The position numbers and the translations under genes are program-made. Positions 25,123-28,947 of a DNA stretch of 64,000 nt are shown here, piece after piece (position 1 is the stretch's first letter; every line of letters starts with the position of its first letter). Below the pieces are notes generated by a model. That model ran no database searches and had not been told where the DNA came from. It saw only the letters and a list, made by a program, of their open reading frames with translations. Source of the stretch: Candidatus Poribacteria bacterium (GTDB taxonomy: Bacteria; Poribacteria; WGA-4E; PCPOR2b); the NCBI GenBank assembly GCA_965208675.1, contig OZ242351.1:672001-736000 (forward strand), written 5' to 3'.

Positions 25123-26541
25123 CTACTTGGCTATAGACGGAATGCGTTTCCATAACCCTGTCGCTTGTTCAAAGGCGTGAGCCAGTTGCAGCACGCCAAA
25201 GTCATCTTGGTGCCGCCCTACAATCTGCACGCCCACTGGCAAGCCTTCCGGTGTGAATCCACATGGAACAGAGATGGCGGGCAGACCCGTAACGGTTACA
25301 TAATAGCATGATTTCATCCAGTCAATGTAGGTTTCCATTTTAACACCGCCAATTTCTGTTACATATCGTTGTGTCACGTCAAACGGCGGTACTTGGTTCA
25401 CAGGGAGAATCAGAAACTCGTAGGTATCCATGAATTGCCGAACGCGGTGATAAATCTCAGTCTGTTTAAGTTCGGCCCATCCAATTTGCGGGCCGCTCAA
25501 CTTCTTCCCTTCTTCGGTATTCCAGACGATTGTGTCCTTCAATTGGCCGCGGTGGGTTTTCAGCAAGCCGCTATAGGCAAGTTCAAAGCGCCACGCCCGC
25601 CATATCTTGAAGACTTCATCCGCATCGGTGAAATCGGGTTCACCATCTTCGACTACGCAGCCCAAGTCTTCAAACACGCTGCGCTGACAATTAATCGCGT
25701 ATGCTACGCGTGCATCTATTGGCAGCCCGCCAAAATCATTGCCCCAGGCGATGCGCACGCCCGAAAAATCGCGTGCTAAGGGACGAGCAAACCGACTGCC
25801 CGGCTCAGCGACGGCGATTGGCGATCGCGCATCCGGCCCGGCGACAGCGCTCAATACAAGTGCAGCATCTTCGACTGTTCTTGCCATTGGCCCTTGTACT
25901 GTAATTGGGAACCAGCCTGTTAAGTTGGGCCAAATTGGCACTCTGCCGGGGGAGGTGCGAAAACCAACGACATTACAGAAGTTGCCCGGAATTCGCAACG
26001 AGCCGCCCATGTCGCTGCCGTCCGCGATTGGAAGCATCCTGCACGCTAACGCCGCGGCTGCGCCACCGCTGCTACCGCCGCAGGTCTTTGAGGTGTCGTA
26101 GGGGTTTAGCGTTTCTCCGAACACTTCGTTATAGGTCTGTGCTCCTGCGCCGAATTCGGGAGTGTTAGTTTTACCGATGGTGATTGATCCGGCTCTCTTC
26201 AACCGCTCCACAATCAGCGCGTCCTCGTCCGGAACAAAATCCTTAAAAATGGGAGATCCGAAACTTGTGCGGATACCTTGAGTTTCAAATAGATCTTTAT
26301 GCGCTATCGGTAGTCCATGCAATTCGCCCGCCGTTTCACCGCGTGCCAGTGCCTCATCGGCGGCGATAGCCTGTTCAATCGCTTGTTCGGGCAACAAAGT
26401 AACTATCGCGTTTACTTTAGGGTTAACACGCTCAATTTGCGCTAAATGGGCTTCCATCACCTCTTTGGCCGATACATCTCTTGCCCGAATACGGCGGCAC
26501 AACTCGGAGGCTGTCATAAAGCAAATGTCTTGGTGGGGCAT
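25123..26541 (-). CDS. Amidase signature family protein
   Basis: HKD, GKTNTPEFG, GGSSGG, SDMGGSLRIP. Confidence 0.95.
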   Translation of the reverse strand: MPHQDICFMTASELCRRIRARDVSAKEVMEAHLAQIERVNPKVNAIVTLLPEQAIEQAIAADEALARGETAGELHGLPIAHKDLFETQGIRTSFGSPIFKDFVPDEDALIVERLKRAGSITIGKTNTPEFGAGAQTYNEVFGETLNPYDTSKTCGGSSGGAAAALACRMLPIADGSDMGGSLRIPGNFCNVVGFRTSPGRVPIWPNLTGWFPITVQGPMARTVEDAALVLSAVAGPDARSPIAVAEPGSRFARPLARDFSGVRIAWGNDFGGLPIDARVAYAINCQRSVFEDLGCVVEDGEPDFTDADEVFKIWRAWRFELAYSGLLKTHRGQLKDTIVWNTEEGKKLSGPQIGWAELKQTEIYHRVRQFMDTYEFLILPVNQVPPFDVTQRYVTEIGGVKMETYIDWMKSCYYVTVTGLPAISVPCGFTPEGLPVGVQIVGRHQDDFGVLQLAHAFEQATGLWKRIPSIAK

Positions 26542-26772
26542 GGTGTTTTCGTTTCACTCTCACGATTATTCAATTTACAGATTTCAAGACTAAACCTCGC
26601 CGCATCGCGTGAGGCAGGTTCGAAACATCCTCAATAGGCTGCTAGTTGTCCGGCACACACCTAGTTCTGCGGTAGCTTAGCAGAAGTCATTATACCCGTC
26701 AACCCAAATCACTCCGATTGCCGTGACACTAAGCGGAGTGTTAATGATACGACTTCGGCGGATAAATTAATC

Positions 26773-26801
26773 TTGATATACATTGGGCGTTGTGATAAAA
26801 T
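26773..26801 (+). promoter_or_regulatory. metG promoter
   Basis: TTGATA-17bp-TAAAAT with TG extended -10. Confidence 0.7.
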
Positions 26802-26878
26802 AGTAGGGTTAAGGAAAATCATTAATTTGCAGGTTGGTTAACAAGTTAATCACGCAATCTCAATCCGGATTATTCTCA

Positions 26879-26926
26879 ATGAAGCGCTTTGCCTTTCTTT
26901 CCAATATGTGCATGTCCATGTGTTGA
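26879..26926 (+). CDS. Putative Met/Cys-rich attenuator leader peptide MKRFAFLSNMCMSMC
   Basis: ATG..ATG TGC ATG TCC ATG TGT TGA inside the metG leader, 8 nt before the antiterminator arm; RBS weak (GGA). Confidence 0.65.
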   Translation: MKRFAFLSNMCMSMC

Positions 26927-26995
26927 AGTTAAAGTGATAGCGGGCGTGCCACAAATTGACTTGGGATTAGCTGTAACATTTTCTTTGTAGAATCG

Positions 26996-27028
26996 CCTAT
27001 TATCACCGCGGTGATAATAGGTTTTTTT
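26996..27028 (+). terminator. Attenuator terminator in the metG leader
   Basis: Perfect dyad CCTATTATCACCGCGGTGATAATAGG + T7, 26 nt before the metG ATG. Confidence 0.85.
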
Positions 27029-27054
27029 GTTTCAGTCGAAAGGTACACAGGTTC

Positions 27055-28947
27055 ATGGGTAAATTCTACATCACAACACCAATTTACTACGTTAATGCGG
27101 AGCCGCATGTCGGTCATGCTTACACAAGTATCGCTGCCGATGCGCTAGCACGGTATCATAGCCTCAAAGGGGACGATGTGTTCTTTTTAACGGGTGTGGA
27201 TGAACACGGTGCAAACATTGAAAAAATCGCGGCTGAAAATGGGGTGTCGCCGCAGCAATATTGTGATCGGATAGCACCGACCTTCACAAACCTTTGGAAG
27301 AAGCTAAATATTTCATACGATATTTTTCTCAGGACCACCAGCGAATTGCACAAACGCGGCGTGGCGAAACTCCTCACTAGTCTTCATGAATCCGGAGATA
27401 TATATAAAGACAAGTATGAGGGATATTATTGCCGCCCGTGCGAAAGTTTCTACATGGACAAAGAACTCGGCGAAGAAAAGGCATGTCCCGTACACCAGTT
27501 GCCTGTGGAATGGGTTGAAGAAGAAAACTACTTTTTCGCGCTGTCGAAATACGAAAACCGGCTGCTGGATCATATTAACGCCAATCCGGAATTTATTCAA
27601 CCCGATAGCCGGCGTAATGAAATCCTTAGTGCAATTGAGTCTGGCTTGAAAGATGTTAGCATTTCACGGGCATCCGTATCGTGGGGCATTCCATTGCCAT
27701 TCGACCCTACTCACAATATCTATGTTTGGATTGAGGCGTTGTGCAACTATATCACAGCGCTCGATTATCATGAGACCGGCGAAAAATACCGCAAGTATTG
27801 GCCTGCCGATATACATCTAATGGGGAAAGAGATTACCCGCTTTCACGCTGTTATCTGGCCCGCAATGTTAATGTCTGTCAACCTACCGCTGCCCAAGCAG
27901 GTTTTCGGACACGGTTGGTTGACCAAGGACGGAAAACGGATCAGCAAAACAACAGGAAACATTATTGATATGGATGCGCTGATTGACGAGTTTGGGTTGG
28001 AAGCATTTCGATACTATATGATGCGTGAATTCAGTTTCGGCAACGACGGCGACTTTCGGCGCGATCGGTTTGTGTTGAGGTATAACGCCGATCTGGCTAA
28101 CGATCTTGGCAACTTGCTCAATCGCACACTAGGACTTGTCTCCAAGCATTTCGGCGTCATTCCCAAGCCTTCGACGCCCGGTGAATTCGACAGCGAAGTT
28201 AAACAGACAGCTAGGGAAACAGTAAAGGAGGTCGAATCCCTCATGAGCCGCCGTGCGTTTGATGCCGCGTTGGAAGCCATCTGGGAGTTTGTGCGCCGTG
28301 TTAACCGGTATGTGCAGCAGACGCAGGTTTGGACACTAGCGAAATCAGAGGAAGACAAAGGACGTATGGGAACTATCCTATATAATAGCTTGGAAGCCCT
28401 TAGAACGGTTGCCGTTCTGATTTCACCGTTTATGCCGGACACCGCAAATCGTATCCGCCAGCAGATGGGGCTCGACGAAAGTTCCAATGCTCAGGGATTA
28501 GATACAGTCGCGCAGTGGGGTGGATTACCGTCGGAGATACCAATTCGGAAACCACAGCCAATATTTCCACGAAAGGATTCGAAATCGTTGCAAAGCGAAA
28601 GTGCAGAAGGAACTGAAGACGCTAACCTTGTTTCGTTCAAAGATTTCCAGTCGTTGGACCTGCGTGTTGCGGAAGTTATTGCTGCAGAACCCGTTCCTAA
28701 CGCTGACCGGCTGCTAAAACTGCGAGTCAGTATCGGCGGCGGGGAGCGGCAAGTCGTCGCCGGCATCGCCGAACACTACACGCCGCAGGATCTAATCGGG
28801 AAGCTGGTGATACTTGTTGCAAACTTAGAACCCGCTACTATCCGCGGAATCAAATCTCAAGGGATGTTGCTTGCAGCCGCCGATGGAAATGACCTAGCAA
28901 TCGCGACGATTGAAAAGGCGCTGCCGCCGGGGACACGGGTAAGCTAA
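27055..28947 (+). CDS. metG: Methionine--tRNA ligase with C-terminal tRNA-binding domain
   Basis: YITTPIYYVN, HVGH, CxxC..CPVH knuckle, RISKT (KMSKS position), C-terminal OB domain. Confidence 0.97.
   Translation: MGKFYITTPIYYVNAEPHVGHAYTSIAADALARYHSLKGDDVFFLTGVDEHGANIEKIAAENGVSPQQYCDRIAPTFTNLWKKLNISYDIFLRTTSELHKRGVAKLLTSLHESGDIYKDKYEGYYCRPCESFYMDKELGEEKACPVHQLPVEWVEEENYFFALSKYENRLLDHINANPEFIQPDSRRNEILSAIESGLKDVSISRASVSWGIPLPFDPTHNIYVWIEALCNYITALDYHETGEKYRKYWPADIHLMGKEITRFHAVIWPAMLMSVNLPLPKQVFGHGWLTKDGKRISKTTGNIIDMDALIDEFGLEAFRYYMMREFSFGNDGDFRRDRFVLRYNADLANDLGNLLNRTLGLVSKHFGVIPKPSTPGEFDSEVKQTARETVKEVESLMSRRAFDAALEAIWEFVRRVNRYVQQTQVWTLAKSEEDKGRMGTILYNSLEALRTVAVLISPFMPDTANRIRQQMGLDESSNAQGLDTVAQWGGLPSEIPIRKPQPIFPRKDSKSLQSESAEGTEDANLVSFKDFQSLDLRVAEVIAAEPVPNADRLLKLRVSIGGGERQVVAGIAEHYTPQDLIGKLVILVANLEPATIRGIKSQGMLLAAADGNDLAIATIEKALPPGTRVS

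Follow-up and report, generated by a model that had tools for sequence, protein, structure and literature searches.

A methionine-codon leader upstream of metG in Candidatus Poribacteria: a conserved attenuator, most probably read by the ribosome, and its relatives in the phylum

The control of methionine genes is generally attributed to SAM riboswitches, T-boxes or MetJ/MetR. Textbooks describe attenuation by a leader peptide for Trp, His, Leu, Thr, Phe and Ile/Val. The DNA upstream of metG, the methionyl-tRNA synthetase gene, in a genome of Candidatus Poribacteria raises the question of whether methionine, too, can be sensed by a ribosome moving along a leader peptide. The organism is an uncultured sponge symbiont, and its genome (G000) is a metagenome-assembled single contig of 4.89 Mb, from which a stretch of 64,000 nucleotides (the window) was analysed. 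An initial annotation of the window had proposed a leader-peptide attenuator upstream of metG, in which stalling on Met codons would free an antiterminator and Cys codons might add sulfur sensing. The comparison reported here indicates that the metG leader is a real, conserved attenuator and most probably a ribosome-read Met sensor. The parts of the leader, their conservation, the frame constraint on the uORF family to which it belongs and the pairing potential of its strands can be read directly from the sequences. The features of the locus are the following, with coordinates in the window.

26773-26801, forward strand: sigma-70-type promoter, TTGATA-17 nt-TAAAAT with a TG extension, 10 of 12 matches
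26849-26851, forward strand: ancestral start position of the uORF, ATC in this genome and ATG in G001 and G003
26854-26863, forward strand: 5' strand of helix A, with a CAATCTCAA core, pairing with 26961-26971 and enclosing the uORF and region 2
26879-26926, forward strand: leader ORF MKRFAFLSNMCMSMC, ATG 26879 to TGA 26926, 15 codons, in frame with the ancestral start, with Met codons at 26906, 26912 and 26918
26884-26901, forward strand: upstream complement of region 2 (5' strand of helix B), within the uORF codons R-F-A-F-L-S and resembling the left arm of the terminator
26909-26926, forward strand: region 1, the Met-codon segment plus stop codon, pairing with region 2
26933-26950, forward strand: region 2, pairing with region 1 (via 26935-26950) or with the terminator left arm (via 26934-26946)
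26961-26971, forward strand: 3' strand of helix A, partner of 26854-26863
26994-27006, forward strand: region 3, terminator left arm and partner of region 2 in the conserved antiterminator pairing
26995-27028, forward strand: intrinsic terminator, 12-bp stem 26995-27022 with a 4-nt loop and T7 at 27022-27028, hairpin of -16.5 kcal/mol
27055-28947, forward strand: metG, methionyl-tRNA synthetase, 630 amino acids, identified by its N-terminal HIGH-type signature plus orthologues

The promoter, the 15-codon uORF, and the antiterminator arm and terminator with its run of seven U were all found where the initial annotation had placed them. The promoter is kept in all four species of the genus with identical or nearly identical hexamers, and is the sole promoter-like match within 26400-27200, although shuffled sequences average 1.9 such sites, so that the match alone is not significant. 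The gene upstream (25123-26541) lies on the opposite strand and diverges from metG; the terminator therefore cannot serve it. The start of metG is 26 nt downstream of the end of the terminator. The leader stretch is identical in the DNA contigs of the first study's run, and across the two DNA runs of the second study a single contig of X6, of low depth, departs from it twice near the promoter.

No member of a known RNA family accounts for the leader. Rfam gives no match in the whole window at the gathering score, and at E up to 10 the segment 26540-27100 returns only mir-36 and TUG1_2, which are chance matches on the terminator. Neither the T-box (RF00230) nor a SAM riboswitch matches the metG leader at E up to 10, and none of the Rfam amino-acid leader families matches it either. 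The missing T-box is informative because the same model detects T-boxes elsewhere in this genome, exactly twice, upstream of pheS and ilvB:

C1:4656293-4656559 of G000, reverse strand: T-box (RF00230 model), 103.7 bits, before pheS
C1:4480601-4480856 of G000, forward strand: T-box (RF00230 model), 101.9 bits, before ilvB

Poribacteria combine T-boxes with leader-peptide attenuators, and regulatory RNA of both kinds would be at work side by side in this uncultured sponge-symbiont phylum. Like the metG leader, the T-box precedes aminoacyl-tRNA synthetase genes, has a terminator/antiterminator output and is a sensor of tRNA charging. The metG leader, however, is without a T-box motif or specifier loop, and its sensing would pass through the ribosome, whereas the T-box binds tRNA directly.

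The uORF of G000 holds three Met within five codons. Conservation of this cluster is partial: the two Met codons of ATG-TCC-ATG are invariant in all four species, but the third is not. In three of the four species the leader peptides read MKRFAFLSNMCMSMC, MKRFAILSNMGMSMCSS and MTRFAFLTNTGMSMRSS, the first being that of G000; the fourth species is without the start at 26879, and an upstream in-frame ATG there gives an ORF of 38 codons. In G000 a single frame is common to all four ATG triplets between the transcription start and the terminator, and across the four species 13 of 13 internal ATG triplets of the metG leaders are in frame. About 946 kb of non-coding DNA, counted on both strands, holds 91 windows in which six codons include at least three in-frame ATG, so about 0.01 would be expected per 190-nt leader. 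One Met codon, ATG 26918-26920 (alignment columns 131-133), is invariant in all 19 Met-type leaders, those of metG and their homologs described below; it lies 13-16 nt upstream of region 2, a distance at which a stalled ribosome would just clear that region.

The start, the stop and the Cys codons of the uORF fit the initial proposal less well. The ATG at 26879 is present in G000 but is secondary, being an internal ATG relative to the ancestral uORF, whose start at 26849 is now ATC in G000 and G002 and ATG in G001 and G003. In the leaders of ThrC-like genes outside the genus, this ancestral start is ATG in 14 of 15 cases and GTG in one. No Shine-Dalgarno-like sequence at normal spacing precedes either candidate start. 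The stop codon of the G000 uORF ends 8 nt upstream of region 2, and a terminating ribosome would therefore cover only about 3 nt there; in G001 and G002 the stop abuts region 2 and in G003 the uORF runs through it, so that these three species have a more favourable layout than G000. Co-sensing of cysteine can be discarded: the two Cys codons interleaved with Met read C/G/G/A and C/C/R/R in the four species.

The alternative pairings of the leader were compared among the four metG leaders and in a set of 22 homologous leaders, by counting the alignment cells that can pair. RNAalifold on all 22 returned the terminator alone because of a large deletion, and the structures were therefore set by hand from subset folds. 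The terminator stem is paired in 100% of cells across the 22 leaders. The terminated fold as a whole is paired in 95.8% of 144 cells, as against 29-43% with slid partners, and contains three compensatory pairs. Helix A reaches 97.5% in the four species and 88% across the 22 leaders, with one A-U to G-C double change. The pairing of region 1 with region 2 consists of 14 pairs, 91% of its cells being paired in the four species, with two compensatory pairs. For the antiterminator, 26934-26946 is complementary to 26994-27006 at 12 of 13 positions, two of them G-U, just as originally described; 85.7% of its cells are paired in the four species and 89% in the 22 leaders, against 32-62% for slid controls, and the pair 161:214 is A-U in 17 leaders and G-C in three. 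The covariation sought as a check did not materialize: it does not exceed that of shuffles in either set, because the sequences are few and closely related.

The mutually exclusive 1:2, 2:3 and 3:4 pairings of a classical attenuator are thus supported by comparison in all four species, with one element replaced. The local hairpin 26902-26910:26917-26925, initially taken for the protector, is present in the minimum-energy fold of G000 but decays in the relatives (75% of cells paired in the four species versus 91% for the direct pairing of region 1 with region 2) and was rejected as a conserved element.

Folding of the conformers gives a divided answer. A stalled ribosome was represented by masking the RNA as far as 12 nt beyond the second conserved Met codon and truncating it at the end of the left arm, and under these conditions the 2:3 antiterminator is the minimum-energy fold in all four species (-18.6 to -21.0 kcal/mol), while in ribosome-free folding the terminator forms in all four. 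When pairing is allowed across the ribosome, however, and the stall is placed at the last two Met codons, the antiterminator is optimal in only one of the four metG leaders, with energy gaps of 1-8 kcal/mol, and 26884-26901 competes for region 2. This cross-ribosome folding is taken as an unrealistic lower bound that counts neither for nor against the switch, as pairing near both edges of a ribosome appears sterically unlikely. The equilibrium energies favour the terminator state over the antiterminator by 5-8 kcal/mol, so the switch to antitermination would have to be kinetic.

From these parts a mechanism can be proposed. Transcription of the leader would start at about 26808. Without a ribosome, or after its release, 26884-26926 would pair with region 2 (26933-26950), and with region 2 sequestered the terminator at 26995-27028 would form and transcription would stop 26 nt before metG. 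Termination would also follow if a ribosome reached the stop codon, since it would then occupy or abut region 2. If the ribosome instead stalled while a Met codon occupied its A site, it would cover the uORF-side partner strands, above all at ATG 26918, and with its leading edge at about 26930 would leave region 2 free to pair with the nascent left arm at 26994-27006; the terminator would not form and metG would be transcribed. Low levels of charged methionine tRNA would in this manner lead to the production of more methionyl-tRNA synthetase. It is fairly probable that the metG leader is such a ribosome-mediated transcription attenuator of the pheST/trp type, sensing charged elongator tRNA-Met; we infer translation of the uORF, stalling at its Met codons and the response of read-through.

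The distribution of the leader places it in a wider family. The metG gene was found in all 41 relatives and in 170 of 176 genomes of the phylum, and about 55 of the upstream regions were inspected. The leader precedes metG in the four species of the genus (4/4) and, among those regions, nowhere else; each of these species retains the promoter, helix A, ATG-TCC-ATG, region 2 and the terminator. In a terminator-pattern search of the species genomes only the three other species of the genus matched, and the same pattern found 0 stretches in metagenome contigs. A covariance model (R1), spanning region 1 through the terminator in the four metG leaders, was searched in 151 genomes of the phylum. It gives full-length matches of 51-81 bits in 22 of 22 sampled genomes of family f1 outside the genus, weaker matches in all 10 genomes of family f3, and nothing better than E 0.3-0.7, in two of 100 genomes, for family f2. 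None of the matches outside the genus in these 151 genomes adjoins metG. All 20 matches that were fetched precede instead a ThrC-like gene, whose 410-residue product belongs to the threonine-synthase family and carries a zinc ribbon at its N terminus.

The uORF of these homologous leaders is longer than that at metG. In 15 leaders of genera g5, g4 and g2 it comprises 43-48 codons with 4-5 internal Met, starting with ATG, or with GTG in g4; an example from g5 is MRQSHFSFSPIRHFVPFTNTTMYMPSMGIAVAVSMRSGQGESRQL. Frame 0 is open in all 15, while stops occur in frame 1 in five and in frame 2 in all 15. The lengths of 129-138 nt are all multiples of 3, the insertions and deletions being whole codons, and 65 of 67 internal ATG triplets are in frame (78 of 80 with the metG leaders included). 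The long-form uORF family is, judged from these alignments, clearly under reading-frame constraint. The metG leader corresponds to the long-form cassette minus 33 or 36 nt, an in-frame deletion. In all 15 long forms the uORF passes through region 2, and in g5 the main strand of the 1:2 pairing lies 20-66 nt upstream of the Met codons. Two leaders of family f3 (g11), translated by eye, hold at most one internal Met codon.

Set against these results, the original suggestion that stalling on Met codons frees the antiterminator retains its core, through a leader present in all four species, the missing T-box and SAM riboswitch and a frame-constrained family with 4-5 Met codons, but it has shed the Cys codons, the local hairpin and the primary role of the start at 26879.

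Other Met-rich leaders precede metG elsewhere. In genus g10, from another family, metG follows an unrelated leader composed of a strong promoter, a Met-rich uORF and a terminator (L030 at about 1240-1400, L031 and L045). The uORF motif M-I-(F/P)-M-M, followed by V, is conserved in the three species of g10. In two of these the end of the uORF copies the right arm of the terminator, and in the third a 21-nt deletion has removed both the uORF stop and the right-arm copy. Met clusters were counted at 75 metagenome metG loci with 200 nt or more of upstream sequence: eight have one on the sense strand and two on the antisense strand. In L112, L117/L118 and L141, Met-rich uORFs preceded by GAGG ribosome-binding sites and followed by terminators lie about 230-250 nt upstream of metG. 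They resemble the leader of the window in having a Met-rich uORF and a terminator before metG, but belong to other lineages, and the resemblance is one of layout. Examples of metagenome uORFs begin with MTIVQRTRHVPMLMSMLSGMPMA and MQGKQRISMSMSMLTGMPQA, on contigs of unassigned lineage with metG at position 1501. The string ATG-TCC-ATG of the window also appears in L112 and L117, which may be coincidence. Within G000 itself, a genome-wide screen for leader terminators gave 42 candidates, among which no second Met-cluster leader beyond metG was present. The serS gene was rejected as an attenuator candidate, as it is merely preceded by the terminator of a tRNA operon.

Three other explanations of the leader have to be weighed. 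The first is a translation-coupled attenuator that is not specific for methionine, in which general ribosome traffic would decide and the Met codons would be incidental or contributory. Such a switch would fit the ThrC-like leaders of the window's own genus (L165, L166 and L170 2499-2713), where region 2, region 3 and the terminator are kept and the Met codons and conserved start are lost. It would also fit the weak constraint on the peptide (variable uORF columns at the three codon positions are 22, 16 and 24 of 47 each), and, with the uORF running through region 2 in most members of the family, simple occupancy could gate the switch. Incidental Met codons, however, would be hard to reconcile with a share of about 10% of the long uORF, with the invariance of the ATG in columns 131-133, with genus g2, which keeps and adds Met codons despite differing surrounding bases, or with the copy moved to metG, which retained them. 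The separate evolution of a Met-rich uORF at metG in g10 points the same way, and a switch of this unspecific kind is regarded as unlikely.

The second explanation is an RNA switch independent of the ribosome, which would bind a metabolite, a tRNA or a protein such as MetRS and of which the open frame would be a by-product. The helices are strongly conserved, the fold of the G000 leader has a z-score of -3.1 and a good ribosome-binding site is lacking, as such an element would predict. In g5, moreover, the Met codons lie in palindromic, self-pairing segments; because two of them are base-paired to one another within a conserved hairpin, their retention could be due to structure alone. Rfam, on the other hand, finds no match in six ThrC-type leaders at E up to 1, adding to the lack of matches at the metG leader, and a pure RNA element predicts neither the frame open in every long form, nor indels in multiples of 3, nor in-frame ATG triplets, nor a conserved start, so that the frame evidence argues against it. 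An RNA sensor of this type is improbable. Both the unspecific switch and the RNA sensor keep some weight because of the missing Shine-Dalgarno sequence, the distance of the G000 stop from region 2, the Met-less ThrC leaders and the g5 hairpin. That there is no regulation at all, the hairpin being a leftover or a bidirectional terminator and the uORF a product of chance, agrees with a promoter match within chance expectation but is hardly credible for a cassette that is conserved in four species, has homologs in 32 more genomes and stands beside a diverging gene with no use for the terminator.

The Met-sensing attenuator remains the preferred reading, and its presence before a ThrC-like gene bears on what that gene may do. 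In the genome of the window the gene lies outside the window, at the following position.

C1:1008095-1009474 of G000 (L170 2596-3975), with counterparts in L150-L169: zinc-ribbon ThrC-family gene under a homologous leader

G000 carries three ThrC-family genes. One, about 3 kb upstream of the leader-controlled paralogue, is a plant-type threonine synthase of 444 amino acids (C1:1004330-1005664; L173 1270-2604) that matches PDB 1e5x, a plant threonine synthase of the SAM-activated type, with E 1.7e-162; the third is found at C1:4070939-4071892. Homoserine kinase (ThrB) is present in G000 with 263.6 bits, MetX and MetA have no match there, and an enzyme of the Cys/Met-PLP family (PF01053, MetB/C/Y-type) gives only weak partial matches of at most 31 bits in this genome. 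A ThrC homolog named MetM makes homocysteine from O-phosphohomoserine in Streptomyces (Hasebe 2024, as cited in PMC13759103). Because MetX, MetA and a clear PF01053 enzyme are absent and ThrB is present, the ThrC paralogue is a candidate MetM-like homocysteine synthase. No carrier-protein gene adjoins the leader-controlled ThrC-like gene. MetH domains are scattered over several genes in G000 (C1:618102-624432 and C1:2653161-2654639), one match containing an in-frame TGA and the C-terminal B12/activation part being encoded separately.

The leader-controlled paralogue may accordingly be an enzyme of the Met pathway, which would make the regulon coherent. The widest form of this view is possible rather than probable: a Met-codon regulon of Poribacteria in which one attenuator family would act on the ThrC paralogue in two families and have been duplicated to metG in one genus, the paralogue would be the missing MetM-like homocysteine synthase, and Met-codon attenuation would be widespread and as yet undescribed. 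If true, Met-codon attenuation would be a widespread counterpart of SAM riboswitches and Met T-boxes, and the leader common to metG and the ThrC-like gene would hint, from the side of regulation, at what a "threonine synthase" paralogue does in a genome without the usual homocysteine-forming enzymes.

Among known systems, the closest in logic is pheM-pheST of E. coli, where a leader peptide rich in Phe codons controls phenylalanyl-tRNA synthetase. In both cases the uORF codons match the amino acid of the downstream synthetase, the 1:2, 2:3 and 3:4 pairings are exclusive and end in an intrinsic terminator, and scarcity of the charged tRNA would yield more synthetase. The metG leader differs in reading Met with only two or three regulatory codons, in belonging to Poribacteria and in having no sequence relation to pheM. 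MetRS also charges the initiator tRNA, and, unlike in pheM-pheST, shortage here could lower initiation on the leader itself. The metG leader has in common with the trp leader of E. coli the greater stability of its terminator relative to the antiterminator, the four-region geometry and the position of the regulatory codons inside region 1. It differs from trpL by the closing helix A, by the second complement of region 2 at 26884-26901, and by an ancestral uORF of 43-48 codons that passes through region 2 in most family members.

A conserved Met-codon attenuator at metG would extend ribosome-mediated sensing to the only amino acid whose synthetase charges the initiator tRNA as well, and raises the question of how the leader stays translated while initiation is also compromised. 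The initial annotation knew of no well-characterised Met-codon attenuator, and a literature search, with supplementary leader lists outside its scope, likewise found no description of one at metG. In its accessible text, Seliverstov 2005 (PMC1262725) gives pheST together with the trpS and leuS attenuators in Streptomyces, these last two being classical attenuators, and none for methionine. The statement nevertheless needs qualification, and the claim of novelty is softened here, because a Met-type leader peptide, metL, has been annotated before metNIQ in Streptomyces lividans TK24, unvalidated, by Droste et al. 2021 (PMC8079986). Like the metG leader, metL is a small reading frame in which Cys codons separate several Met codons, and it was put forward as a Met-dependent attenuator of a methionine gene, but it is leaderless, no Rho-independent terminator was found and its target is a transporter (PMC8079986).

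Two minor observations concern metG loci in genus g5. A conserved perfect palindrome, GGGAACGCAGATCTGCGTTCCC, with no T-run, lies between metG and the gene preceding it, 60-110 nt upstream of metG, in many g5 genomes (L008-L010, L014, L018, L021, L022, L024 and L040), and may be a REP-like element or a protein-binding site. In one g5 genome (G020, C2:3393662-3395565) metG consists of two overlapping pieces in different frames, covering residues 1-283 and 276-629, which reflects either a frameshift or an assembly error.
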